IMG/VR virus record: IMGVR_UViG_3300018080_000105
Span: 96,001-160,000 of that record
Source of the DNA: a virus
Direction: 5' to 3' (one strand)
DNA: 64,000 bases
The position numbers and the translations under genes were made by a program. The notes below the pieces were generated by a model. It saw nothing but the letters and a program-made list of their open reading frames with translations, did not search any database and had not been told where the DNA came from. Positions 4,910 to 64,000 of this stretch are shown piece by piece. Within the stretch, counting starts at the first letter, position 1. Each line of letters starts with the position of its first letter.

Positions 4910-5751
4910 GAATCGTGCTGCTTCTTCATGCGACCGGCCTCGAACACTTGTCGAGTAACCGCCTGGGAGATGTTCAGTGTCTTACCGACTGCATCGTCCC
5001 ACTCTTTCCAGGTGGCATATTCGTACGCGTCTTCTTCCGTCTCGCCGTACAGCTGCAACAACGCAGACACATACGCATCATCTGCACGATGACCGTCCAG
5101 GTGCAGCATGAGAAGAGCATCTGCTCTCCCGTCTGCCGCCAGGCTGATAACCATACGCGTGGCATCTTCATCGTGCACAAGATCCGGAGCCGTCTCGTCC
5201 AATTTCTGGATCCGTAACACTCCCTCGGTGTTAAACAGCCCGATATGCAACGCTGCCAGATTGTTGAACGCCGGAATCTTCACGGGCGGTCGATCGTTCC
5301 GCTCGTCGCTCTCTGCGTTCGCTTGCCGCACCTGGCTGTTGATCGCACGCACCAGCATACGAAGAGAAAACGGCGTGTCACAATGGTAGACGCCGCAGCC
5401 CAACCCTTTGTACACGTCAATGGGTGCGGGTGCTGTGCAGTCACCACCAACACGGGCCGAATTACCCGCCATAACGTGTAGCCAGTTAGCGTATGCCAGG
5501 TCCAGCCCTGGCCCCTGACACGCCCAGTACCGCCATGCGCGAGTGAATCGCCAGCTGTGGAGCGTACCGAACACGCTTGTCTGTACTTCCCCCGGAACAG
5601 TTACCGGGAACTCTTGTATATCGATCTCCGCAGCTTGCAGCTCGCCCTTCACCTGTTCGTCAACGCCCGATAACCCTGCGAGGTTTCCAAATTGTTTCAA
5701 CTCATCCGCTGCGTAAGTAGGCATCTCAGTCGGCAGATTCACCTGCATCAT
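4906..5751 (-). CDS. hypothetical protein
   Basis: 281 aa ORF with overlapping start/stop junctions. Confidence 0.7.
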   Translation of the reverse strand: MMQVNLPTEMPTYAADELKQFGNLAGLSGVDEQVKGELQAAEIDIQEFPVTVPGEVQTSVFGTLHSWRFTRAWRYWACQGPGLDLAYANWLHVMAGNSARVGGDCTAPAPIDVYKGLGCGVYHCDTPFSLRMLVRAINSQVRQANAESDERNDRPPVKIPAFNNLAALHIGLFNTEGVLRIQKLDETAPDLVHDEDATRMVISLAADGRADALLMLHLDGHRADDAYVSALLQLYGETEEDAYEYATWKEWDDAVGKTLNISQAVTRQVFEAGRMKKQHDS

Positions 5752-6287: not shown

Positions 6288-6306
6288 TACTCCTCTTGGT
6301 TAAAGT

Positions 6307-6578
6307 GAGTGGCGACCCCTGAAGCCGCCGATAGGCATCGCCACTCATAGGAGAAAGGTCGAGGCTGCCAAACATAACCCCAGCGACCTTTCCGTCCCCA
6401 CCGTCGACTCAGCGGCGCATCATGACGGACAGGTACCGCACACTATGTGTTTCAAACGGGAGGCGACCCCTTGAACTGCCGATAGGCATCCCTCCCCGGA
6501 AAATGGACCAGCCAATGAATAAAACTGGCCCCGTCCCCACCGACGACTCAGCAGTGCATCATTGTCGGACAGGTACCG
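6307..6578 (-). ncRNA. tandem duplicated structured RNA element (two ~125-nt copies), unknown class
   Basis: copies 6307-6438 and 6458-6578 share GGCGACCCC..GCCGATAGGCATC and CCGTCCCCACCG.CGACTCAGC..GCATCA..CGGACAGGTACCG; compensatory stem change ccgtc/gacgg to ccgac/gtcgg; intergenic; strand inferred from flanking genes. Confidence 0.6.
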
Positions 6579-6596
6579 TAAGTATCGAGTAACCGG

Positions 6597-20381: not shown

Positions 20382-20973
20382 ATGCCTTTCCTCGCCATGA
20401 TGTGCCGACCATGGGTGAAAATGGTAGCCTTGCCTTGCCACGCCACGCCACTCCTCGCCCCGCCGGTCCTTGCCCTGCAGAGCCGCGCCGAGCCGTGATG
20501 ACTCAACGTAAAAGAACACGCGAGCCTTGCCTTGCCTTGCCACGCCCCGCCCAGCCTTTCCTTGCCTTGCAGAGCCGCGCCGAGCCGTGATGGCTCAATG
20601 TAAAAGAACATGCTTGCCTTGCCTTGCCACGCCCTGCCCAGCCTGTCCTTGCCCTGCAGAGCCGCGCCGAGCCGTGATGGCTCAATGTAAAAAACATGCT
20701 TGCCTTGCCATGCTATTCCGCGCCGTGCCCAGCCTTGCCGCGACTCGCCTTGCCGTGATGGCTCAACGTAAAAGAACATGCTTGCCTTGCCTTGCCGCTC
20801 CTTGCCTGGCCAGGCCATGCCTGTCCTCGCCTTACCCTGCAGAGCCCCGCCAGGCCATGCTGGCTCAACGTAAAAGAACATGCTTGCCTTGCCTTGCCCT
20901 TCCCTGCCACGCCCTGCCACTCCTCGCCTCTCCTTGCCATGCAGCGCCGTACCTAGCCGGGCCTGGTTATGCT
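20382..20973 (-). repeat. array of GGC-NN pentamer tracts separated by a conserved ~27-nt linker (candidate guide-RNA array)
   Basis: six tracts (20425-20494, 20522-20586, 20614-20673, 20700-20754, 20782-20856, 20884-20963) with 14, 13, 12, 11, 15 and 16 in-register pentamers, 62 of 81 starting GGC on the minus strand; linker GCATGTTCTTTTACGTTGAGCCATCAC x5; partial tract 20382-20406. Confidence 0.92.
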
Positions 20974-51516: not shown

Positions 51517-54500
51517 TCACGCGCACACCAGTACCTCTGGCTGAATTCCGAGAGAACTCAGAAGTTCGTCAGAGGGATCTTCGCCCCAGTTGACTTGGAC
51601 GTCGTAATCGATGCCGAAATGATACGGCTCCGCGACATTCATCGGGGTATTGTCAAGGTACCGGGGCCATATCGGTACGCGCTGGACCATGTGCTGTCGC
51701 AACACGTTCTGCAGGAAATCCTGCAGCTCGGAAATTGGCACCTGAAACAGCAAAGCATCATGAATCTGCAGCAACAGTTTGTAACCGTACTGCGGATTAT
51801 CCTGCTTATGCTTGTGAAAATTGTAGATCGCCAGCCAGATCGCATCAGCGACCATGTTCTGAATCGGGAAGTTCTGCGACTGGCGCTCCTGTTCGCCAAT
51901 CACGCCCCTGTCGTGGGCAGGGATGAACCGCCGCATACGGCCGAACGAACCAGCCATCCAACGATCCTCCTGGGATCGCCGACGACATTCTGCCAGGAAC
52001 GCAGCAGTTCCCGGGTAGCGTACGAAATACTGGTCGATCATCGCCTGACAATCATCGACGGAGACTTCAACACCCTCTTCCTTACACTGCCGTGCGATCG
52101 CCTCTGCGGATCGCCCGTAAGGAATACCGAAGTTCACGTTCTTCGCCGCCACTCGTAAAGGTGAGTGTCCGGCATTCTTCAGTCCCTTCTTGGTCGGGTC
52201 GCACTGAAGTTGGAACGTGTCAACGGCCGTGTGAGAGTGGATATCGTAGTGAAGAGGATCAGACTCGGGCAACGCATTACGTCGCACGTGTTCGATCATG
52301 TTGGGGTCGTCAGCAAGCCAGGCGATCCCCGCCAGCTCCGCCCCGGTGTAGTCAGCCTCGACCAGCACATGCCCCTCTTCCGCACAAAAGATCGTACGGA
52401 TGGGCGAGAGATACAGTGCCTGCTCAAAGACGTCAACGTAATCACCACGTACCGTGGTTACGCCTTCCTCGTTGGTAACTTCGGTACCCAGAATACGAGA
52501 GTAGTCACCTTCACGACGTTTGGAGATATTCTGCAGCGGCGGACGGGAAGACGCCCCTCGCCCAGTTTCTTTGTTCTGGGAGATATGCGTATGGACCTTC
52601 CCGTCATGTTGTGCCGCCGCTGCGAGGCCTTTGTCATAGACAAGTGCCCCTTGGGCGTCACGCTTCCAACCCGTCCCGTCCTCATTCAGTACGGGTGGTC
52701 GCAACGGACCCTTCAAAACCTGGGTGATGAACTTTAGGTCGCGGAGCATCATCGCCAGGGGATTCTCATGGCCTAAAATCCCCAGTACCTCCTTGTCGGA
52801 ACTCGGAGTGTACTTGTGCTGTTCTCCGCGGGTGATGATATCAGCCCACAGCTTCGACCGACGGCCGGTGCTTTTCACCGGTGTCAGTCCCAACGTTATA
52901 GACCCAGGCGGTCGAATGGAAATCCGCTGCCCTGTTGTTTTGTCAACTTTCTTGGAGTAGTCATCCCCAAACAGGAATGCAACACACTGAGGAGTAGATT
53001 CCGGATTGAAGTCAGGCCACCCAATCTGCTCCCTGAAGTGGGCCAACAGACGGTCACGTGCATAAATGAACAACGTGGTCAACCGGTCCACTCGATCACG
53101 GTCCAACTTGATCCCAGTCATCTCCATTTCCAGCACACCGAGACTGGCACAATGAGATCGCCAATATGGCTCCCAGGACGAAATACCGTTCCAGTCGGAG
53201 TCCAGCAACCCGCCGTCTTTCATGTGCTCGATAGCGATGCGTCGCGTCACATCCGGGTCATACTGGGCGTAGTTATCGCCCCACTCAGGGTCGGTCGGCT
53301 CTGGGTGCAGAATCCACTGCGGAAGGAAACCATACCCCTCCAGATCCTCCTTCTTGATATTGTGCGCCGCACAGTACCCGGTAATGTGCGCTTTCAGCCG
53401 GGTGTCATACACAGGGGCCGACGTCAGCCGTACAGTCATGTCGGTCAATCGGTACGAAGCAGTCTCGTTGACTGCATGGTATTGCAGTCCCGTGTCGAAC
53501 CCGCCCTCTGTGCGGCACAGCTCTGGGGAGTCCGGCGGCGCGTACTCTTCACGAATGTCCAAACCTTCTGCAATCAGCCACGGAAGGTCAGCCCGCAAGA
53601 AGTGACCACCAGGCCGAGGAAACCAACCACGATCCGGGTCGCGTTTCAAAAGACGCGTCAACTCATGGATTGCGTGGCCGATAGACGGCTTGAACGCCGG
53701 CTCCCCGCCCTGGTGGCGTAGCACAACATTGATACCCTCGCCGTGCTTGGAACTGAACTGAATGTTCCGTAAATAAGAACCAGGGTTCCCCGGGTGTTCC
53801 CCTTCCCACTCGCCGTCGACCGCAATCACCCGACGCCATGGGTCAGGATCAGCCATGATCTCATCCACAATCGCCTTCAGTTCGCGATGCTTGTAGATAT
53901 TGCGGTGATCAATGAACGACTCCTGCTTCCCGATATCCGCGCCACGAGTCAGGGCAATGAACTGCCCGACCTGCGCACGGAACTCAGGATAAGTCTCAGG
54001 GGTACGCCACACAGCGCCTGGCGCTGTCGCGGCCATCACCTTGATCGTGTGATAGCACGGCTCTTCATCCAGCGTACTATGCAGCGGGATGATGATTTCC
54101 TCCACACGACCAGTCATCGCCTGCACACCGTAACTCGTCCCCAGCAGCCACTTCGAGGCGTCGGAGCCGAGGCACAACAGATACTTCGGACGCACCAGTC
54201 GCAGGGTCTGCTGCAGAAGAACGTTGCAATCTTTCTTGTGGGCCATTGGCAACGAGTCAGACTGCGGATCCAGCTGCGGCCAGTGAACCAGATTATCAAC
54301 GTAGAACGCATCACGTTCCCGTCCAACATCCCACTCGTCGAGAGCATCCATCAAAATCTGGGCACTCTCGCCGACAAAGTTTCGCCGTTGTGCGACGTCG
54401 TCTTTGCCGGGCATCTTCCCGAGGATCATCACATCCGCCGGCCGCGGGCCGCCCATGCCGTTCGCCGTATCAGCTCCCAACAAGTGGCCCGGAACCATCG

Positions 54501-54801
54501 GAGCATTCACCACGCCAGATTTGATGCTGACCGGCATAGTGAACTGCTCGTCGTAAAGTGCTCTGTGATACAGATAGGGCAGATTCACTCCGCACGCGAT
54601 CAATGTCTTATCAGACTGTCGCTGCCCCTCGTACACAGGCTCGTCATCACCCTGTCCGACAGCGGCGGCCACAAAGTTTGGGCCAGGTAGCGGCATCCCA
54701 GGGGCTGTCAGCGGGTAAAACGGAAACTGCTCTGCAGCCTGCTGGCTCATTCTGCCGTTGCGCAATTCCTGCAACAGCGCTGCTCGATGGATCATCTGCA
54801 T
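51517..54801 (-). CDS. polA: family A DNA polymerase with N-terminal uracil-DNA glycosylase-like domain
   Basis: UDG4-like VMILGKMPG..D..FVG.S, RPKYLLCLG; exo AVDGEW; pol motifs A (EADYTGAEL), B (RVAAKNVNFGIPYG), C (LQIHDAL). Confidence 0.92.
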   Translation of the reverse strand: MQMIHRAALLQELRNGRMSQQAAEQFPFYPLTAPGMPLPGPNFVAAAVGQGDDEPVYEGQRQSDKTLIACGVNLPYLYHRALYDEQFTMPVSIKSGVVNAPMVPGHLLGADTANGMGGPRPADVMILGKMPGKDDVAQRRNFVGESAQILMDALDEWDVGRERDAFYVDNLVHWPQLDPQSDSLPMAHKKDCNVLLQQTLRLVRPKYLLCLGSDASKWLLGTSYGVQAMTGRVEEIIIPLHSTLDEEPCYHTIKVMAATAPGAVWRTPETYPEFRAQVGQFIALTRGADIGKQESFIDHRNIYKHRELKAIVDEIMADPDPWRRVIAVDGEWEGEHPGNPGSYLRNIQFSSKHGEGINVVLRHQGGEPAFKPSIGHAIHELTRLLKRDPDRGWFPRPGGHFLRADLPWLIAEGLDIREEYAPPDSPELCRTEGGFDTGLQYHAVNETASYRLTDMTVRLTSAPVYDTRLKAHITGYCAAHNIKKEDLEGYGFLPQWILHPEPTDPEWGDNYAQYDPDVTRRIAIEHMKDGGLLDSDWNGISSWEPYWRSHCASLGVLEMEMTGIKLDRDRVDRLTTLFIYARDRLLAHFREQIGWPDFNPESTPQCVAFLFGDDYSKKVDKTTGQRISIRPPGSITLGLTPVKSTGRRSKLWADIITRGEQHKYTPSSDKEVLGILGHENPLAMMLRDLKFITQVLKGPLRPPVLNEDGTGWKRDAQGALVYDKGLAAAAQHDGKVHTHISQNKETGRGASSRPPLQNISKRREGDYSRILGTEVTNEEGVTTVRGDYVDVFEQALYLSPIRTIFCAEEGHVLVEADYTGAELAGIAWLADDPNMIEHVRRNALPESDPLHYDIHSHTAVDTFQLQCDPTKKGLKNAGHSPLRVAAKNVNFGIPYGRSAEAIARQCKEEGVEVSVDDCQAMIDQYFVRYPGTAAFLAECRRRSQEDRWMAGSFGRMRRFIPAHDRGVIGEQERQSQNFPIQNMVADAIWLAIYNFHKHKQDNPQYGYKLLLQIHDALLFQVPISELQDFLQNVLRQHMVQRVPIWPRYLDNTPMNVAEPYHFGIDYDVQVNWGEDPSDELLSSLGIQPEVLVCA
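53768..53780 (+). promoter_or_regulatory. CGTAAATAAGAAC motif copy (1 mismatch), intragenic
   Basis: inside polA; may be incidental. Confidence 0.3.
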
Positions 54802-54807
54802 GCCTTC

Positions 54808-55902
54808 CTAACGCGTTGGCAGGGATACTCCACATGCCGCCGCGGAACTGTAAATGATGTTCCAGATGGTTTGGCGATCGTAATCACCAACATCGAAACC
54901 GTCCGGCAACCGCACCTGGATCGGAATCAGGTGATGTTGCTGCAGCATCGCCACAGTGGCCGCTGTCTCTTTCTGTGCGTCAGGGTCCAGAATCAGAATC
55001 ACAGGCTTCTGCGGCCACGTGTTCACAATCCGGTTCAGATGAAACGGCGAAATCTTCTTGCCCAGAATTGGCATCGCCGCGTCACCGATTACGTGTTGGT
55101 CCGTCACACCTTCCACAATCACCGGAAACGGTTGATACCGTGCCGCGTCGTAGTTGTGCAAAAACCACTTCTTCTTCATACCCGGCATCCCGTAATACTT
55201 CGGAACCCGGGACCAATCCGCGTCCCCGATGAAACGACCCTGCCAACCTTGCAACTCCCCGTCCATACGGAGGGGGAAGATCACACGGTTATTAGCAGGG
55301 AAGAACTTCGGTAGAGCGTGAGTGCAAAAACTGATCTCGTGCTTGTCAAGGAGTGCCGGTGTGTAACGCCGATCATCGCACATGTACCTGACTGCCGGGT
55401 GATTCGGCATGCTCTGGATCATCTGTGTCAACGGCACCAAAGTGCCCGGCATCTCGACTTTTACCTGTTGAGTGTTATCGCCCCAGGCTTCGCTGTGTTG
55501 TTCCACATTGAAGACAGGCAAGTGCCTGACGTTCGCGTTCCGGAAACCGTACACAGTGTCCTTCAGCTTCAACCAATTCTCGGGGTTCGACAGGCAATCC
55601 TCGTTGTAACAGGTTGCCAGGAAGAACATCCGATGGCCGTCATCATCCGGCTGTCCGTAACGATGATTCACCCACAGCCTGTGTCTCGTGTCCTCGCAGA
55701 ACGGGCAATTCACGCAGTAGTATTCACCCGGTTGGACGATCTGCGTCGAATACGTTCCGTTGTTAAGCCGCGTACGGCTCGCGTAAAACTCTTCTCCCTC
55801 GTTGGCGATCTGTACGCCCCCGGGAAAGTGCCGATCCAGCTGTGTGTACAACGCGGGAGTGAGCACCGATCGGTTTTGGTTGTGATAGAGAAGATCTGTC
55901 AT
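54808..55902 (-). CDS. dnaG: DnaG-like primase (Zn finger + TOPRIM)
   Basis: VNCPFC..CYNEDC; IVEGVTD; LILDPDA; DVGD. Confidence 0.85.
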   Translation of the reverse strand: MTDLLYHNQNRSVLTPALYTQLDRHFPGGVQIANEGEEFYASRTRLNNGTYSTQIVQPGEYYCVNCPFCEDTRHRLWVNHRYGQPDDDGHRMFFLATCYNEDCLSNPENWLKLKDTVYGFRNANVRHLPVFNVEQHSEAWGDNTQQVKVEMPGTLVPLTQMIQSMPNHPAVRYMCDDRRYTPALLDKHEISFCTHALPKFFPANNRVIFPLRMDGELQGWQGRFIGDADWSRVPKYYGMPGMKKKWFLHNYDAARYQPFPVIVEGVTDQHVIGDAAMPILGKKISPFHLNRIVNTWPQKPVILILDPDAQKETAATVAMLQQHHLIPIQVRLPDGFDVGDYDRQTIWNIIYSSAAACGVSLPTR

Positions 55903-57533
55903 TGCTCTGCCATCGGCGACCCGCCTACGCGTTCCACCGCGTTTTCCAATCCACCCACCTCACGACGATCGCTCGGCGACATAAACTGCCGATTCATTTC
56001 GTCAGCGGTGTAGATGGTGGACACATCCTCCATACGAGAAAAGTTACTGTGAATTTTCAAGGTAGCTGGAGGAGCTTCCTCGTTTGGCCGATACCGCACC
56101 TTAGAGAAGTTCATCAACCGGCAGCCAGTGGCGGCGTCCGCATTCCCCAGGCACAAACACGCGGCCATATTCACCGCAAAGTCTCGTGATTCTGCCGCAT
56201 CAGTATGTTTCATCAACTTGAAAGGCGACGCATTTCCGGCGTCGCCTTTAAGTTGATGGATCACCCATGTAGTGCAATTGAACCGTGAACTGATTTCCAG
56301 ACGGCAGCGATCCCCGAACGTTTTCAGCAGGTTACGGTAGCTACTCTCGTCCATCCCTTGCGCCTGCATCCATCGCTCACAGACAAGACCTGCGTAATCG
56401 ATGAACACACTACGAATACGGCGAGGCTCGTACCGCGACAAGTAAGCCACGATTTCAGGAACAAAACCATTACCGGCGTTAGGGAAGTCATCAGAACCAG
56501 ACATATCCACCAGCTTCAAACAGTCTTTCAACTGTTGATGGTGCAAGCGATAACGATCCGCCTCTGACAAAATGTCATCCTGGTTTTGCTGCATAGCCCG
56601 CTCATACGGAGCAAGATTCTCCTGCGTGGTGAGCTCACCCCAGTCAGCCATCGTCTCCAGTTTGGCCCGGTCAATATCGAAGAAATCTGACCAGATACGC
56701 GGGCGAATCTTCAAACCAGACTCTTCATAACTGAAGTACACCGACAGCGCCGGTGCTTCATCCAGTTCCTGTGCTTCAGTCCACGCCTGTTTCGCCGCAG
56801 CAACTGCCATCTGCACACCAAGCGTGGTCTTACCACCACCGGTCGGGCCAAGCAGGCCATTACAGTCGCCAGGGCGTTGCCCCTCCAGTGGCGTATCAAT
56901 GAAATCGACTCCAGTTTTCAAAAACACAGATGCCTGTTCGATCTGCGTACCGAACTCGGGAGCTATATCCACTTCAGGGATGGCTTTCAGCGTCGACAGT
57001 CTGTCACGCTGTTTGCTGATCACTTCCAGGAACGCCCCAATTTCAGAAGGTACGCCTGGTGTGTTGCTTGGGTTCATCACCCGTCGCAGCGGATCGACAA
57101 CCGTTCTCTCATTAACGAACTTCTCCAGCAGCTCACGCCCCAGAGCTTCGTTCACGCTGTTAAACTCAACGCCAGGATTCACGACTTGATAAAACAAGCC
57201 ATTCTCGTCCTGCCGATACAGAATTTCCATCTGCTGCTGCGTGAACCCGTATGTCGGGTCATTCTCCAGTTCCTGGGACGCCAGCGATGCCAGCGTCTCC
57301 CATGTCACACCGTCATACCGGTCTACACTCGCACAAAGCACAATGTAGAGCAGCTTCAACGGGGGCTCGTGAGTAAAGTGATGCGGTTGTACCAACGCGC
57401 GCATTTCCTGCAGGAATTGCGGACAATGCGCTGCACAAATAAGCATCCATTCCAAAGCCGCCGGTTCAATACGGGCGTGCGTAGCCTGCGGCTGCTGAGC
57501 AAGCAGCGCAGGGTCTTGTACAGTCTGAGTCAT
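55899..57533 (-). CDS. dnaB: DnaB-like replicative helicase
   Basis: GPTGGGKTT, YFSYEES, VFIDYAG, HQL, KVRYR. Confidence 0.85.
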   Translation of the reverse strand: MTQTVQDPALLAQQPQATHARIEPAALEWMLICAAHCPQFLQEMRALVQPHHFTHEPPLKLLYIVLCASVDRYDGVTWETLASLASQELENDPTYGFTQQQMEILYRQDENGLFYQVVNPGVEFNSVNEALGRELLEKFVNERTVVDPLRRVMNPSNTPGVPSEIGAFLEVISKQRDRLSTLKAIPEVDIAPEFGTQIEQASVFLKTGVDFIDTPLEGQRPGDCNGLLGPTGGGKTTLGVQMAVAAAKQAWTEAQELDEAPALSVYFSYEESGLKIRPRIWSDFFDIDRAKLETMADWGELTTQENLAPYERAMQQNQDDILSEADRYRLHHQQLKDCLKLVDMSGSDDFPNAGNGFVPEIVAYLSRYEPRRIRSVFIDYAGLVCERWMQAQGMDESSYRNLLKTFGDRCRLEISSRFNCTTWVIHQLKGDAGNASPFKLMKHTDAAESRDFAVNMAACLCLGNADAATGCRLMNFSKVRYRPNEEAPPATLKIHSNFSRMEDVSTIYTADEMNRQFMSPSDRREVGGLENAVERVGGSPMAEQ

Positions 57534-57555: not shown

Positions 57556-58260
57556 TTACCGAGCCATGAGCGACTTCAACGCGGTGGCTTCCGCCCGGAA
57601 ATCTTCCGGGACCAATTCGCCGAGCAATGCGTCAAAATCATCCATCTGAAACAGGTACTGTTTGAGTGCCATTCCCCTCAACTGATCCGCAACTGGTAGT
57701 AGCTCGCCGATAGCGGCGCAGTAACGGATCATTGGTGAAACGGGGCATGACCGATCCTTCAGTACGTAGTTCAGAGCCCTTCGATACTCCCAACCCATGT
57801 TCTTTGTCAACGGTAGTACGCGAACACGAAGTTGGTTGTAGTCAGATTCAATCTTTCGTTGTAGTGTCTCCCGTGATTGATACCGGAAAGCCTCCCATCG
57901 CGCCAAGGCGCTTTCGCCATAAAGTTGATTAGCGCGAGGAGGTCGGGAGGGGACGGCTCCCACAAACTGAGCTTTTACGTAGGCCAGAGGTGGTGCGTCG
58001 CACGCAATAATTCTTCTGGCAATTTTCACCCAGTCCGGCTCGGTCTTTCGCCGGCCGTAAGCATCTTCGCCAGCGTCGCCGGCAATCCGTCGCTCACCGT
58101 AAGCCTGGCGGCCTGTCAACTGCTGATAGCAGTCACAGTAAGCAGCTCGCACAAGTTCTGCCAGTTCCTGGAGATACGTGTGAGCTTTAGTTGAGAGTGT
58201 AATTGCAGGAGGCCCTGTATGTTGGGTCTCCCCCATTTCCAGTACGCGTTGTCTAGGCAT
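57556..58260 (-). CDS. hypothetical protein
   Basis: start trimmed to MPRQRV. Confidence 0.65.
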   Translation of the reverse strand: MPRQRVLEMGETQHTGPPAITLSTKAHTYLQELAELVRAAYCDCYQQLTGRQAYGERRIAGDAGEDAYGRRKTEPDWVKIARRIIACDAPPLAYVKAQFVGAVPSRPPRANQLYGESALARWEAFRYQSRETLQRKIESDYNQLRVRVLPLTKNMGWEYRRALNYVLKDRSCPVSPMIRYCAAIGELLPVADQLRGMALKQYLFQMDDFDALLGELVPEDFRAEATALKSLMAR

Positions 58261-59755
58261 CGAATCGACTCCTGGCAGGCCAGTTCTGCGTCCAACCACG
58301 CTCTGCGTAGTGCCGCTTCCTGTTCTCCGACTTCCGCCTGAAGTTCTTGTTCCAGCCGTCGTAACAGTCAACTACCTCGCCAACCTCCTTACCTGTGTCG
58401 GGCGAGATGCGACTCACACGGCCAGGCCCCTGCGCATCCATGATCTCCGACTCCCTCGCGTCTACACGGTAGAGAACCTGCAGTGGCTGGAAGTCAACAC
58501 CTGTCGCCCAAACATCCGTCGCAATGACGCGTTTGAGGCTCCCGGCCTCGAAATCCTGCCGCATCTCCTCTCGCCGCTCTGAGGTCGTCGGTACAAAGTT
58601 AGGTGGAAGATACCCATTTCGCTGAAAATATGCCAGATCATCGTCTTTCATTGCCCCATAACACAGCGCAAATTCAGGCAAATACTGCCAAAGCCTCACA
58701 GCATGCTCCACTGTCGCCACCAAGATCAGAATCTGCGTATCCGGATCCGGGTAATGCGTCCGCACATCCTGTGCAATCTGGTAGTTTCGCTGGTCATTCC
58801 GCCAGATTCCGTGCTTCATCCGCCGAGTGCCGTGCAGCCCCGACGCCGGATCGTTTGGCAAGTTGATCGACAGCCACCGCACATTGATTGGCACCACCAG
58901 CCCCAGCTCCACGGCTTCCTGATAGGTCAACTTGAAAATCTCACGACCAAAGAACAGCTCCAACTGAGCGTCCGCCCCGTCCATTCGCCCTTTGGGTGTC
59001 GCAGTGAACGCAAAGTTCCTCGACTGCCGCCAGGTCTCCCCCAGCACACGAGACGTCTTATCAGTCATCAACTGGTGAGCTTCGTCGCACAGTAGGAAAT
59101 CCGCGTCACCCTCAGCCCGGTGCGCAGAGCCGGCAGTGTACACGGTCACTCGCTCGCCAGACAATTTCTGTCCGCCGCCAATGTGCCCTACGTTGGGAAT
59201 CGTTCTCGATATCTGTCGCACCATCCTGGCCACCACATCCTTTGACCGAGTGACGATGTCAATACGGGCTCGTGGGTACAGATGGCAGATTGCCTCAATC
59301 AGGTGCGTTTTGCCAAAACCCATTGTCGCATTGATCAGGCCACATTGATTGCCTGCGATGTATTGCAGACACTCTTCCTGCTTAGCGCGGAACTCGATGT
59401 GTTGACGCACATTGTCCCAGTTAGGTTCATAGACGTCCGCGATCTCTTTCGCCGGACTCAGGTCGTGATACTCGACTCCAATGCCGCGGGCCTGCAAAGC
59501 CTCTACGATCGAAGTCAGGAAGCCGAAGCCAGTCACCAACCGCCCCTCCTCCATAGCGTACATCGTCCGTGTCTCCACAGACATTGTGTCACGCATACCG
59601 TCAGGGCCGTATTGCTGATGGCCTCTGAGCAACGTTTTGTGCTCGTACGACAGAAGGGGGTGTAACAGCTGTGCGACATTCAACGGCAGCGGGCTCTGAC
59701 CGTCAGGACTCAAATCAATCAAAGTCCCGGATCGCCGCACAATCAGGTTGTTCAT
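58253..59755 (-). CDS. SF2 DEAH helicase (UvsW-like)
   Basis: ATMGFGKT, LCDEAH, FTATP, TGVDF, QGPGRVSR. Confidence 0.9.
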   Translation of the reverse strand: MNNLIVRRSGTLIDLSPDGQSPLPLNVAQLLHPLLSYEHKTLLRGHQQYGPDGMRDTMSVETRTMYAMEEGRLVTGFGFLTSIVEALQARGIGVEYHDLSPAKEIADVYEPNWDNVRQHIEFRAKQEECLQYIAGNQCGLINATMGFGKTHLIEAICHLYPRARIDIVTRSKDVVARMVRQISRTIPNVGHIGGGQKLSGERVTVYTAGSAHRAEGDADFLLCDEAHQLMTDKTSRVLGETWRQSRNFAFTATPKGRMDGADAQLELFFGREIFKLTYQEAVELGLVVPINVRWLSINLPNDPASGLHGTRRMKHGIWRNDQRNYQIAQDVRTHYPDPDTQILILVATVEHAVRLWQYLPEFALCYGAMKDDDLAYFQRNGYLPPNFVPTTSERREEMRQDFEAGSLKRVIATDVWATGVDFQPLQVLYRVDARESEIMDAQGPGRVSRISPDTGKEVGEVVDCYDGWNKNFRRKSENRKRHYAERGWTQNWPARSRFDA

Positions 59756-60264
59756 GTATGTTCCTCAGCATCAGTAAGCCGTGGTGCTCTGATCGTAGGC
59801 AACACGGAAACAACATCAAACGTACCGTACGTCTCTCCCTCTTTACGAAACGGGGAGATTCCTTTGTACGTGCCCATCACTTCCAACAAGTTTGTGAAGG
59901 CATCAATGCCCATGTCCTTCGGCAGGACGGCGTTCACCCGGATTTCCGTCCCCGGGCGAAACGCCTCGTGTAGTGCGTATCGGGCTCGTTTCTTACCGTT
60001 GCCAGGAGTAACAATCCTTTTCCACTCTTTCAACGGGCCGTCGACCGGGGCTGCCCAGGCGACGTTCTTCGCGCTCTTTCCATGACGTCCCACTACTGTA
60101 GCCGCGAATTCCAGATTCTCCCTCCACCACGACGGGAGAAACTGGATGCGACCTTGGGAGTCACGAGGCATGCGATAAATCACGCCTTTGCCTCGGCGAA
60201 CCGGTTTCTTGGCGAAACCAAGACACGGCTGTGTGAAACGTAACCTGATCGTCACTTCCTGCAT
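59752..60264 (-). CDS. second, compact Cas7/RAMP-like protein
   Basis: EVTIRLRFTQPCLG beta1, RDSQGRIQFLPSWWRENL, HEAFRPGTEIRVNAVL, Gly-loop GTYKGISPFRKEGETYGTFDVV. Confidence 0.6.
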   Translation of the reverse strand: MQEVTIRLRFTQPCLGFAKKPVRRGKGVIYRMPRDSQGRIQFLPSWWRENLEFAATVVGRHGKSAKNVAWAAPVDGPLKEWKRIVTPGNGKKRARYALHEAFRPGTEIRVNAVLPKDMGIDAFTNLLEVMGTYKGISPFRKEGETYGTFDVVSVLPTIRAPRLTDAEEHT

Positions 60265-60279
60265 CGGTGGTCATCCTGA

Positions 60280-61215
60280 CTAAGCCGGGCTGGGGAATCC
60301 CTTCACGTGGTCACGAAAGGCCTGCACCTCCGCGCCCTTCAGCAGGCTTTCTGCATCAAACAACTCCAGCTTTTGAGGGTTGTTGATCAACAACGACTGC
60401 TGCCAATTCCGGATAAAGTACACCAGAAAGGCACGCGTCGCCAGTAAGTCTCCCTTAATGCCGCCGCCGGCTGCTCGCCATCGCCGCCAGAGAAAATTCT
60501 CTGGCCGCTCATAACTCGCGTTGCTCGGCTCACGACCCTTCCAGGCGCGCAGAACAGTACAAAACCGATCCCGCCGAGAGATATCCCGCGGGGTCTTCAC
60601 ATCACCAGCTGCGTACCGCGGCAGAATGCCCAGGTACGATCGCAGACGAGCCAATCTGTTCGGTCTCTTCGGATCCACAAACCAACGAGGATCCAAGATC
60701 ATCGCAATCAACATCGCCATGCTCTCGTGGTGCACGTTAGGAATAAACCGCCAACGGGCATAAGCCGGGTGGCGCGTCAGAAACCGCATCGAAGATGTGG
60801 CTGTCCCTTGGGCGCTCGCAATCTCTGCTGCAATTGCGTAAGCAGGCATGTCCAGCTTTGTCAGTGGATGCCAGCCTCCGAGAACCGCAGCAAGTCGCAG
60901 TTGCCGCATTCGCCAGAGCACTTTCTCCGGATCGGAGAGTTCTTCTGTATCTGCGACGCATTTTCGCGGAGACGCTATTTCAACACGACTTTTCTTCAGC
61001 TCGACGAGCTGGTGATAAAGATTCGTGATCAAACGAGCATTTCCGTGGGTTCCGAGTACGCGAACGTGAGGATCGCCATACGCAGAACACTCTGTCAACA
61101 ATTCTGCCAGATCACCGGAAAAGGGCGAAGGTCGTTCGACACCAATAGCCTGCCACACAGTGCCATGACTGTCGGTGTGAAGTCTCAAAACACTTTGTTC
61201 CGGGACAATTTTCAC
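60280..61215 (-). CDS. IS110-transposase/Tas(Nop)-like protein with degenerate RuvC domain
   Basis: HPAY..WRFIPNV..SMAMLIAMILDPRWF..RLRSYLGILP matches the IS110 C-terminal/Nop helical motif; N-terminal strand/helix order fits RuvC-DEDD but the acidic catalytic residues are mostly absent. Confidence 0.65.
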   Translation of the reverse strand: MKIVPEQSVLRLHTDSHGTVWQAIGVERPSPFSGDLAELLTECSAYGDPHVRVLGTHGNARLITNLYHQLVELKKSRVEIASPRKCVADTEELSDPEKVLWRMRQLRLAAVLGGWHPLTKLDMPAYAIAAEIASAQGTATSSMRFLTRHPAYARWRFIPNVHHESMAMLIAMILDPRWFVDPKRPNRLARLRSYLGILPRYAAGDVKTPRDISRRDRFCTVLRAWKGREPSNASYERPENFLWRRWRAAGGGIKGDLLATRAFLVYFIRNWQQSLLINNPQKLELFDAESLLKGAEVQAFRDHVKGFPSPA

Positions 61216-63329
61216 AGGGTGATCACCGAATCGAACAACGGGGCCAGCTCAGTCTCGTGTGTCACGATCATGCACTGTAACCCACGCGAGGCGGCAAACT
61301 CACGAAGCCTCCCCAGCACAGGTTCAAACCCACGGATATGATGTTCGTCGAGATACGCCGTCGGTTCGTCGAGGTACAGTGCCCCGATATTCTCTGCCAA
61401 CAGCAAGTTAATTGCCAGACGGAACGTCAAGGCAAGGATCACCTTTTGGCCACCTGACAGCCTTTCAGCCGGCTGTACAGTGCCATCCTGAAATGTTGCC
61501 ACGAAGGACAAGCCCTCATCCGCATGTACGCGATAGTCAGTCTCAAATAGCTCCAGGAACGCATTCATATCGGACTGGATCACCTCCAGATTCCGTTGCG
61601 CCACGAATCGCGGAGCCGCATCTTTGTGCACCAAAGCACGCATTTCGGTAGCCAGGTCACGCCATTGCCGAAATTTTTCAGCCTGTTGCTGAATCGCTTC
61701 TGCGTCCGAAATCTGCGTACGCAAGCCGGCAGCCTTTGTCTCGGCGATCGCCAAAGCTGTCTCCGCGTCACGACGAGTCTGTTCGTGTTCATTCCACGAT
61801 TCGATGTACGTAACCGCCTCGCCCCGCTGCTCCGCAGTGTAATTCGGCATCGCCTGCAATGCGGTTTGCAACTCGTCCACGCCTTTCGTCAAGCTCTCCA
61901 ACCGGCCTTCCAGATTCGCCACAGCCGACTGCTGAGCATTCCTCTGGCGAACCTGCGCATCGTGCAACTGTTGCTGCTTCTGCTCGTCCGCGATGATGGC
62001 CTGTTGAGCACCTACGTCCACATCGATTTCTTCAGCCGAGGGCAAATTTTTCAACATGTCCTCATACTGCGCAATCGAGCGTGTCGCGCTGTCGTAATCA
62101 GTTTGGTAGGAAGACTGCAACGAGCCGTACTCATCCCAAGCATCCACCAACGGGGCTATCTCGGCCCGCCGTGCCAGCAACTCAGGAATCCGTACCTTGG
62201 CCTGTTCCACTTTCTGCGCCAGTGTCGTAGCCGGTGTACCACAAGTCGGGCACTCAGCGACTCCGTCAGCCATGGTTCCGACAAACGCTTGTAAGTTCGC
62301 CAGTTCCGCGTCAATCGCTACCACTTCCTGCCAGTACGTCTCGCGATCACCGGACGGAACCGGAGGAGCGACCAGATTACCCAGTACAGCTCTCCACTTT
62401 GCCAGTTCAGCCTCGACGTTATCGCGGGCAGTCTGTGCCTTCTTATTCTGATCCCACACAGTCAGTAGCCGCTGAGCTTCCGAAACATCACCAGCCACTT
62501 TCGACAGTGCCTCTTCCAGCTCCCCGAGCAACGTATCCAGGTCGCTGAGCGTCTGCCTTGCTGTGCTCAACTCACTTGCAACCTGGTCTCTCTCCTGCTG
62601 TGCCGAAGCTACTGCACTGATTGCTTGCTGTCGATCGTCGTACTTTCGTATCACATCCTGGTTAGAGTTACGACCCTCCGCGATCTGCTCGTAAGTCGCG
62701 ATCGTGGCCAGGGATGTACGCAATCGCTCTATCTCTGTTCCCGCCGTCACAAGCTCTGCGCGGCACTGATCCAGATCTGTTGCAACCGTAGGGATCTCCA
62801 GACTCTTCAGCTTGTCACCGATGGTCTTATGAACAGACGCGGCCTTCTGCGTGCGAAACAGTCGTTGAAACTGCTCCGCTCGCTTAGCCGGCGTCTTTGA
62901 AATAAACCCAAAGATATCTTCCTGGGAAACAATCACGAGATCGTTGATGATCGACGTGCTGACTCCCAGGATCTCTTCGATACGAGCCGTAATATCGCGA
63001 TCACCTTCAATCACCTCGCCCGTGCTCAGCGTCATTGTCGCTTTGTGGCTCGCGGGTTTCAGCATTCTCCGAATCGTGCCGGAGATCTCTCCGTGCGTGA
63101 AGTCCATCTCGACGAAAGACTTCTGAGTAGGATCTGCGAGCACACGAACGTTATCCGCCTTTGTGCCCGAGTTTGTATTCTCACCTGTCAGCGCGAGGCG
63201 TATGCCGCCCAGGAAGTTCGACTTCCCGGAACCGTTCGCCCCCATGATCGCCGTCAAGCCCTCTGAAAAGTGTTCAGTTCTCTGCGAGTGCTGACAGAAG
63301 TTCAGCAGTTGCAGACGTTCCACACGCAT
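61212..63329 (-). CDS. sbcC: SbcC/Rad50-like SMC ATPase with Zn hook
   Basis: GANGSGKS, CPTC hook, LSGGQ, LYLDEPT; start trimmed to MRVERL. Confidence 0.92.
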   Translation of the reverse strand: MRVERLQLLNFCQHSQRTEHFSEGLTAIMGANGSGKSNFLGGIRLALTGENTNSGTKADNVRVLADPTQKSFVEMDFTHGEISGTIRRMLKPASHKATMTLSTGEVIEGDRDITARIEEILGVSTSIINDLVIVSQEDIFGFISKTPAKRAEQFQRLFRTQKAASVHKTIGDKLKSLEIPTVATDLDQCRAELVTAGTEIERLRTSLATIATYEQIAEGRNSNQDVIRKYDDRQQAISAVASAQQERDQVASELSTARQTLSDLDTLLGELEEALSKVAGDVSEAQRLLTVWDQNKKAQTARDNVEAELAKWRAVLGNLVAPPVPSGDRETYWQEVVAIDAELANLQAFVGTMADGVAECPTCGTPATTLAQKVEQAKVRIPELLARRAEIAPLVDAWDEYGSLQSSYQTDYDSATRSIAQYEDMLKNLPSAEEIDVDVGAQQAIIADEQKQQQLHDAQVRQRNAQQSAVANLEGRLESLTKGVDELQTALQAMPNYTAEQRGEAVTYIESWNEHEQTRRDAETALAIAETKAAGLRTQISDAEAIQQQAEKFRQWRDLATEMRALVHKDAAPRFVAQRNLEVIQSDMNAFLELFETDYRVHADEGLSFVATFQDGTVQPAERLSGGQKVILALTFRLAINLLLAENIGALYLDEPTAYLDEHHIRGFEPVLGRLREFAASRGLQCMIVTHETELAPLFDSVITL

Positions 63330-63339
63330 AGAAGTCCTC

Positions 63340-64000
63340 TCAGGACATAAATTCTTCAAAAAGCCGGTCATACTCGGCAGCCTCATCCTCGGCTTCGAGC
63401 ATCCGAACGGTATTGTCGTGGAGCAGGGTGCCGGGCGGCCGCAGCTGTCCCACTGCATTAACCAGCCCAGCAAACGCATCTTTCGGACGAAGCGCGGTGT
63501 CCACCACCACGTCATCTGTTACACGCAACGGCTCAGCAAACAAATGACCACTCTCACCCACAACGGCAGTCAGCCGTGCCAGTGCGTCAGGCAGATTATC
63601 TGCATACTGCATCCGTAGAATCGGTTTTGCGATCTCCCGATCATCTGGAGCCGTCTCCTGCAATGTCGTCAACTGCTGCGGCAACTCTCGCACAATGCTG
63701 TCGAGCTGCTCTGGTGTCATGATGCGGGCAGACGAGTAAGCACGTGTACGAATCTGCACCCATTCAACCCGCCTATCTTCGTGCAGGACACCCAGATACT
63801 TATTAGCGTTCTCGCCCAACGACTGCATCGCCGTCGACCCCGGTGAGTAGAAGTCCACAGGATCACCGTTAGCTGCGGGACTTTGGTAATGCCCGGTGAC
63901 ATGGAAATCGCCAGTGAGCACCTTCATCGCCCGAGGGAAGTGCTCCGCATGCCCGTCAACCAATCCCACTGGCTGCAATGCGTCCCAGGACTGGTGACAC
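63340..64000 (-). CDS. sbcD: SbcD/Mre11-like metallophosphoesterase nuclease (5' part outside window)
   Basis: LTGDFHV, YSPGST; frame open to window end; directly upstream of sbcC. Confidence 0.75.
   Translation of the reverse strand, partial: CHQSWDALQPVGLVDGHAEHFPRAMKVLTGDFHVTGHYQSPAANGDPVDFYSPGSTAMQSLGENANKYLGVLHEDRRVEWVQIRTRAYSSARIMTPEQLDSIVRELPQQLTTLQETAPDDREIAKPILRMQYADNLPDALARLTAVVGESGHLFAEPLRVTDDVVVDTALRPKDAFAGLVNAVGQLRPPGTLLHDNTVRMLEAEDEAAEYDRLFEEFMS

Follow-up and report, generated by a model that had tools for sequence, protein, structure and literature searches.

A compact relative of TasR and IS110 recombinases in the SbcCD-helicase-replisome operon of uncultured phages

ORF311 is a protein of 311 residues encoded by an open reading frame (ORF) on the minus strand of a 64,000-nucleotide stretch of viral DNA (the window), which is part of a virus record of 184,021 base pairs that is 89% complete by CheckV. 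This compact protein is related to TIGR-TasR and to the IS110 recombinases, and its gene is a near-universal, translationally coupled member of an operon that also carries SbcCD, a helicase, and the replisome genes. Across its family, the catalytic set of these relatives is lost and a short linker stands in the place of their coiled coil. ORF311 is probably, at a moderate level of confidence, an accessory of SbcCD and the helicase that binds nucleic acid without cutting it. The gene and its parts are as follows.

60280..61215, minus strand: ORF311, 311 residues, GTG start and TAG stop; array-less, predicted nuclease-dead TasR/IS110-like protein
60886..61215, minus strand: N-terminal RuvC/RNase H-like domain of ORF311 (N-domain), residues ~1-110; no conserved acidic site
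60811..60882, minus strand: short linker of ORF311, residues ~112-135; nearly invariant GGWH, D122, and Y126
60301..60810, minus strand: C-terminal Nop/IS110-Tnp-type helical domain of ORF311 (C-domain), residues ~136-305
61212..61215, minus strand: GTGA start/stop overlap of ORF311 and sbcC; translational coupling

The GTG start of ORF311 (61215-61213) and the TGA stop of sbcC (61214-61212) both lie within the word GTGA, and the TAG stop is followed after just 15 nucleotides by the next ATG. Because of this overlap on one side and the 15-nucleotide gap on the other, there is no room at the gene for insertion sequence (IS) ends, a bridge RNA, or a TIGR array. An earlier reading of the window, made from the letters and their translations only (the sequence-only reading), had proposed both a real gene at this place whose GTG overlaps the sbcC stop and the lack of space around it, and the coordinates and the GTGA word agree with it. 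ORF311 is present as a single copy in the genome, and nearly all genes of the window lie on the minus strand.

Fold and catalytic positions of ORF311

ORF311 was modelled with AlphaFold2 from a 25-sequence alignment (predicted local distance difference test, pLDDT, 91.5; predicted template modelling score 0.90), and residues 109-311 were also folded alone (pLDDT 88.8) and compared with 48,161 PDB representatives without Foldseek. With the full model, Foldseek places IS621, ISCro4, and TasR in the lead, with probabilities of 0.90-0.98 and weak E-values. Alignment of the Foldseek candidates with VIA-align ranks TasR (9mty_B) best, with a Z of 11.2 over 238 residues (root-mean-square deviation, rmsd, 5.3; model residues 8-305), while TasH attains a Z of 8.9 over 133 residues (rmsd 2.8; model residues 128-304) and ISCro4 and IS621 score about 8 against the full model.

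The modelled N-domain follows the order strand-strand-strand-helix-strand-helix-strand. Its VIA matches include the YqgF domain of Spt6 (Z 6.5-7.3), a poxvirus resolvase (Z 6.9), and the chloroplast resolvase MOC1 (Z 6.0); it also resembles integrases, and RNase H-fold matches overall lie at Z 5-7. For the C-domain alone, the top five of the 48,161 chains are TasR (Z 9.7), TasH (8.7), ISCro4 (6.4), and the two Nop5 chains 1nt2_B (4.5) and 3nvm_A (4.4), and the next ranks are held by Prp31 (2ozb_B, Z 3.8), Nop56/58, and further Nop5 chains, with all remaining chains below Z 4. The alignment to TasR comprises 162 residues across TasR 60-322. As modelled, the C-domain gives a clean Nop-superfamily signal that is closest to Tas.

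Sequence profiles were compared with a set of 11 IS110 transposases from Planctomycetota genomes. Here hhalign pairs ORF311 residues 136-297 with IS110 Tnp columns 208-356 (probability 84%, E 7.5e-6, 141 columns), such that the family pattern FIxxL...A..LL..IxDPRW...YLGLxP falls on IS110 IxGvG...DPxRF...YxGLvP. At the level of profiles, homology of the ORF311 C-domain to the IS110 Tnp domain is shown. Conservation across the family peaks in the C-terminal motifs HP.., FIP.., ILDPRWF, and YLGxxP, and their assignment to the IS110/Nop domain by the sequence-only reading is borne out by this alignment and by structural matches restricted to the Nop type. PF02371 occurs in 19-26% of the members of the nearest ESM Atlas clusters. 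The C-domain is basic, with an isoelectric point of 10.6 in ORF311 and a family median of 9.1, and in its C-terminal helix, position 300 is aromatic in 98% of members and position 303 is a histidine (His 303) in 72%.

The N-domain gives no sequence signal against the IS110 RuvC domain by hhalign, which pairs just lEvaSP with VxvanP (E 0.48). Of the N-terminal alignment to IS110 that had been made by eye, the residue-level part finds no support in sequence, whereas the RuvC/RNase H-like fold that it implied is recovered in the model. The comparison with IS110, TasR, and Nop5 structures that had been suggested as a check yields a two-domain fold of the Tas/IS110 type, RuvC-like and then Nop-type.

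Conservation was counted over 125 representatives of the family, with the catalytic positions mapped by strand order. Where strand 1 ends, position 13 is H/T and position 15 is an aspartate in just 46%. Positions 54-56, at which strand 4 ends, carry an acid in 0/125, and the region conserves R52 (91%), G55, and N59 (96%) instead. Position 79 is a glutamate in 67% and a glutamine in 21%, acids are found at positions 92 and 95 in 58% and 54%, respectively, and the D122 position is acidic in 96%. No conserved DEDD-like set is present among the representatives. The catalytic serine of IS110 falls in the column of G203, a position that varies within the family, and PF01548 has no match anywhere in the genome. 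These counts indicate the loss of the catalytic set across the family, so that the earlier remark on ORF311, that most acidic residues are gone from its N-domain, holds family-wide; the placement of the individual sites follows strand order and draws on the counts.

In the hhalign alignment, the ~24 residues of the linker stand where IS110 and Tas proteins have a coiled coil of ~80-100 residues. Because ~80 coiled-coil columns of IS110 correspond to ~24 residues of ORF311, the coiled coil is missing. VIA-align likewise leaves about 100 TasR residues within 60-322 unaligned, and neither the full model nor the C-domain model contains long paired helices. In Tas, dimerisation depends on the coiled coil, which also touches the guide-target duplex, and it is the resulting dimer that reads the two spacers (PMC12045711).

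TIGR-Tas systems were defined and linked to IS110 and Nop by Faure et al. 2025 (PMC12045711). TaTasR (9MTY, PMC12045711), the best structural match, has its domain order in common with ORF311, RuvC-like and then Nop-type. However, TaTasR has four conserved acids, cuts DNA, forms a coiled-coil dimer, and lies next to a TIGR array, and none of these traits is found in ORF311. PateTasR and CsTasR are closer in one respect, since they keep the RuvC fold with replaced catalytic positions, as in ORF311; an arginine fills their pocket, and the ORF311 family has its prevalent R52 and a strand 4 without an acid. Yet both keep the coiled coil, stem-loop tigRNA arrays, and RNA-guided repression of transcription, whereas ORF311 has no coiled coil and no array was found for it in the genomes scanned. 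IS621 (8WT6/8WT9) and ISCro4 (9T56) have the two-domain plan in common with ORF311 in addition to the profile homology of the C-domain, but unlike IS110, ORF311 is devoid of the DEDD set, the serine, the coiled coil, a bridge RNA leader, ends, and mobility.

Two more distant groups are informative. The fold match of the C-domain to Nop5/Nop56/Nop58 and Prp31 is weak but specific, and far weaker than that to Tas. Box C/D proteins of the Nop5 type possess a coiled coil and have L7Ae and fibrillarin as partners, whereas ORF311 has no coiled coil and a search for L7Ae found none in the genome. Tex and Spt6 combine a dead RuvC-like fold with a helical nucleic-acid-binding domain as a scaffold and serve as a working analogy only: their helix-hairpin-helix C-domain has no shown homology to that of ORF311 and belongs to another family with other partners.

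Xu et al. 2026 describe a long branch of compact TasR proteins that have neither coiled coil nor array and are encoded by viral genomes with tightly packed genes (10.64898/2026.09.09.750476, Extended Data Fig. 1). ORF311 is likewise compact, without a coiled coil or a detected array, and encoded in a dense viral genome; likened by description, its family is likely this divergent tas clade. The preprint reports neither gene context nor function for the clade, whereas ORF311 is fixed in an SbcCD-helicase-replisome operon. ORF311 adds this gene context to a kind of protein already described as array-less tas.

Operon context of ORF311

The neighbors of ORF311 in the window are listed below.

61212..63515, minus strand: SbcC/Rad50-like ATPase, immediately upstream; Pfam SMC_N and AAA_23, PHROG 77 (E 4e-43)
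63340..64000 (full gene to 64419), minus strand: SbcD/Mre11-like nuclease, 3' part; Metallophos (E 7e-7), PHROG 100 SbcD-like (E 1e-9)
59752..60264, minus strand: ORF170, called "RAMP-like" in the sequence-only reading; no Pfam or PHROG match
58253..59755, minus strand: XPB/UvsW-like superfamily 2 (SF2) helicase; ResIII, Helicase_C, PHROG 16
55899-57533, minus strand: DnaB-like helicase; Pfam, PHROGs
54808-55902, minus strand: primase; Pfam, PHROGs
51517-54801, minus strand: family A polymerase (PolA) with UDG domain; Pfam, PHROGs

The operon thus reads SbcD, SbcC, ORF311, ORF170, SF2 helicase, ORF271, DnaB-like helicase, primase, and PolA, all on the minus strand. The SF2 helicase matches XPBII (E 1e-20) and T4 UvsW (2oca, E 3.5e-12) over nearly its full length in profile comparison. 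The full SbcD-like gene corresponds to L047:341-1420:-, and with this normal gene upstream of sbcC, the idea that ORF311 substitutes for SbcD is ruled out. The longest SbcC frame overlaps the SbcD-like gene by 176 nucleotides (63340-63515), and its Pfam match starts at residue 62; because of these two features, the true sbcC start probably lies further downstream.

The order SbcC-ORF311-SF2 helicase-DnaB-primase-PolA is kept in 46/46 loci retrieved with the ORF311 profile, at ORF311 identities down to 27-30%. SbcD was detected upstream in most of these loci, and ORF170 in 42 of the 46. A second survey was anchored on the helicase alone (80 loci) to avoid the circularity of anchoring on ORF311. 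It finds an ORF311 homologue directly upstream of the helicase in 77 of the 79 loci with upstream DNA, the remaining locus having no DNA upstream. SbcC is the upstream neighbor in all ORF311-anchored loci and in the helicase-anchored set, while ORF170 was found in 53/80 helicase-anchored loci. Given 77/79 for ORF311 versus 53/80 for ORF170, the constant trio consists of SbcC, ORF311, and the helicase, and ORF170 is optional. The place that the sequence-only reading described as fixed, with the RAMP-like gene on one side and sbcC on the other, is therefore found here and in most relatives, but about a third of the related loci lack the RAMP-like gene, and the proposed pairing of the two proteins is not obligatory.

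The operon is dense in 10 relatives, with no conserved intergenic gap around ORF311. In two loci with the helicase at 5001, L117 and L143, an SbcC-like gene ends 25-300 nucleotides before the helicase with no ORF311 homologue between them; these are natural losses of ORF311. Insertions of ~1.2-1.4 kilobases (kb) occur inside the otherwise fixed block in L024, L043, L044 (9418-10842), and L029 (8807-10004). In three loci they separate ORF170 from the helicase as far as it is detectable, and in one they separate ORF311 from ORF170; they may be homing-endonuclease or intron-like.

Possible roles of ORF311

The accessory role proposed for ORF311 is drawn from a fold whose catalytic site is dead, the lack of both coiled coil and array, the core-operon position, and the basic C-domain. 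ORF311 would no longer cut or recombine and would be produced together with SbcC. Its target may be a branched or hybrid intermediate (forks, D-loops, R-loops, or hairpin ends), and SbcCD and the XPB/UvsW-like helicase would be its partners during recombination-dependent replication. Programmable, array-guided action would be no part of this role. Two known arrangements offer analogies: R-loops and branched DNA are substrates of T4 UvsW, and in archaea the operons for Mre11-Rad50 also encode the RNase H-fold partner NurA and the helicase HerA.

Several points weigh against an accessory role of this kind. Synteny tells where ORF311 acts and not what it does. The loss of the nuclease is no argument against RNA guidance, because published dead TasRs are still RNA-guided binders, and the catalytic counts over the 125 representatives place positions by strand order and not by superposition. 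Stem-loop tigRNA units that are weakly conserved or lie inside genes could escape array scans; stem-loop tigRNAs are described as having little sequence conservation and may lie in coding sequence (10.64898/2026.09.09.750476). ORF311 is also not strictly essential, because the lineages of L117 and L143 do without the gene. Finally, the cultured-phage collection holds no DNA or protein match to the ORF311 group, its nearest helicase being 25% identical.

A different reading, which we consider unlikely, is that ORF311 is a Tas-type RNA-guided, non-cutting DNA binder, which would take its guide from another locus or use a fixed phage transcript and may act with ORF170. Its closest structures are RNA-guided proteins, and RNA-guided repression has been proven for nuclease-dead TasR and TasA (Xu et al. 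2026, 10.64898/2026.09.09.750476). The same work left the guide source of the array-less divergent clade open and considered an "alternative guide RNA source". In PateTasR, a tyrosine of the C-terminal helix stacks on a box C/D base (10.64898/2026.09.09.750476), which may be compared with the aromatic position 300 and His 303 of the ORF311 family. The phage also encodes structured RNAs, including one with a box C/D-like word pair (see below). In a still fainter version of this reading, ORF311 would load a fixed phage RNA, either an origin or primer transcript or the operon mRNA, and mark a DNA site or R-loop for SbcCD and the helicase.

The missing coiled coil, which in Tas is both the dimer-maker and the contact to the guide-target duplex, argues against guidance, as do the searches for guides. 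No TIGR-like array was found in the source genome (G000) or in three complete relatives (G043, G052, and G053) by TRF and a periodic 7-mer scan, and the scan for dual-repeat arrays that the sequence-only reading had suggested is in this sense negative. A blastn comparison of G000 with the three relatives gives no sign of a shared non-coding element, its hits not having each been mapped to ORFs; the long matches lie in stretches taken as conserved genes, and the others are short and weak. The window itself contains no tRNA and no member of an Rfam family.

The RNA that had been put forward for a test of binding belongs to a tandem pair of structured RNAs of ~145 nucleotides each, which lies at 6300-6590 of the window on the minus strand and has no Rfam match. 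Both copies hold the hairpin CCGWC-AUGAUGC-NNN-GCUGAGUC-GWCGG with a compensatory change in the closing stem; on the coding strand, UGAUG and CUGA form box C/D-like words within this hairpin. A covariance model of the RNA at 6307-6578 finds it in none of 22 related phage records, 10 of which are at least 90% complete. Because 0/22 related records match, this RNA is not distributed with the ORF311 protein, and its suggested part as the bound RNA falls away.

Two aspects of the locus likewise speak against guidance: ORF170, the possible partner, is missing in 27/80 loci, and the fixed place in a core operon is, in our judgment, unlike the patchy spread expected of interference systems. Of the earlier view of ORF311 as a domesticated, non-cutting, RNA-guided binder paired with a RAMP, the Tas/IS110-type protein with no conserved catalytic set stands, while an obligatory RAMP partnership and the RNA at 6307-6578 find no support.

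The tandem arrays that the scans did return comprise 5-nucleotide-periodic arrays (G000 and G052), a 36-nucleotide repeat (G052), and short repeats that are taken to be coding and include several of a collagen-like or acidic kind. The 5-nucleotide-periodic arrays have units of 87-102 nucleotides and are located at window positions 20429-20948 and, as two arrays, at 186663-187790 of G052, the record that contains locus L035. They look like the guide arrays of the VIPR system (10.64898/2026.04.26.720920; YNNGG-repeat description) and lie apart from the ORF311 operon. The 36-nucleotide unit of G052 is repeated 8.7 times at 381-693 with an internal 12-nucleotide period, close to the beginning of this record, which has direct terminal repeats.

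A candidate antisense small RNA was noted at L035, where a 103-nucleotide gap (L035:9539-9641) separates the ORF170 homologue from the helicase. On the antisense strand, the gap holds a G+C-rich hairpin followed by a U-run, with a promoter-like site about 88 nucleotides upstream of this terminator. The 88-nucleotide candidate was not found in G000, G043, or G053, and its pairing with the DnaB leader is no better than that of shuffles. The source window has no matching gap, with 15 nucleotides after ORF311.

That ORF311 binds RNA without targeting DNA, for example a primer, an origin transcript, or the leader of the operon mRNA, and so controls priming or expression, seems distinctly doubtful. 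The Nop-type domain does bind RNA in Nop5, Prp31, and Tas, the C-domain of ORF311 is basic, and the gene adjoins primase and helicase genes. However, neither an L7Ae-type K-turn partner in the genome nor a conserved RNA was found in the searches above, and the dead RuvC domain is kept and conserved, which is a better fit to the binding of a duplex or junction.

It is less probable still that ORF311 is an active nuclease or junction resolvase that acts after SbcCD through a non-canonical site (e.g., E79, E92, D95, H116, and D122). The RuvC/resolvase-like fold, the recombination-operon location, and the conserved polar residues R52, N59, E79, H116, and D122 that remain would suit such an enzyme. 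Against it, the N-domain has no invariant acidic pair or triad, strand 4 is without an acid in every representative, positions 92 and 95 are acidic in little more than half of them (54-58%), and the position of the IS110 serine is variable. An ordinary or decaying IS110-family insertion sequence, for which the C-domain homology is the one argument, can be dismissed: the gene is a single copy that overlaps sbcC with the next gene 15 nucleotides downstream, has no DEDD set, serine, or Pfam IS110 match, and holds a position common to 77/79 loci across deep divergence, so that synteny and missing ends refute a mobile element, as the sequence-only reading had held.

For the accessory role and for RNA guidance alike, an array-less Tas-type protein is now seen in context, namely in a core phage replication operon and not in a stand-alone interference locus. 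The array-less branch of the 2026 survey thereby turns from an open question into concrete questions on whether the protein carries an RNA, which nucleic-acid structures it binds, and whether it contacts SbcCD or the helicase. If ORF311 is guide-free, it would clearly exemplify how an RNA-guided scaffold can be taken over for housekeeping DNA metabolism. If instead a fixed guide is used, it would represent a new use of RNA guidance that is built into phage replication or recombination rather than defence.

Family size and distribution

A word-indexed search returned 24 relatives of ORF311 of about 300 residues, and an exhaustive HMMER search expands the family to 724 clusters at 50% identity, 562 of them with E < 1e-10. 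A profile of the 125 representatives retrieves further members alone, all without Pfam domains or names, and reaches no other protein family; in sequence space, the family appears as a discrete island. ORF311 itself has no match in the Pfam or PHROGs libraries, in BFVD searched by Foldseek, or in a PDB profile search with E up to 10, and 25 close members give no Pfam match at E up to 10, PF02371 included.

The members with inspectable DNA are almost all on phage contigs, with 46 loci in IMG/VR, and the host clade of the ORF311 operon is a group of uncultured phages of roughly 150-235 kb. One protein of 477 residues (P0172), on a single 3.2-kb NCBI contig, joins an ORF311 homologue (residues 1-301) to an ORF170 homologue (from 318). 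Because the frame breaks and the sequence diverges at both joints and the fusion is known from this one short record, it was dropped as evidence of an ORF311-ORF170 interaction; the joints are probably frame errors.

The sole locus in prokaryotes, in a survey of one genome per species across 185,579 species, is L048 (RFHO01000106.1, 5486-6690), in a metagenome-assembled genome of Planctomycetota. Of the strings checked from row AF-A0A3M1VGY1 of the Tas seed alignment (Data S1, PMC12045711), 6/6 occur in its protein without a mismatch, and the alignment used for mining the published Tas set thus already includes a member of the ORF311 family. Ahead of the gene stand no more than the final ~17 codons of an sbcC-like frame, and further upstream lie bacterial genes (LRAT/NlpC-P60, glucose/sorbosone dehydrogenase, and cytochrome c). 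Either the contig is chimeric or L048 is the remnant of a phage within a bacterial genome.

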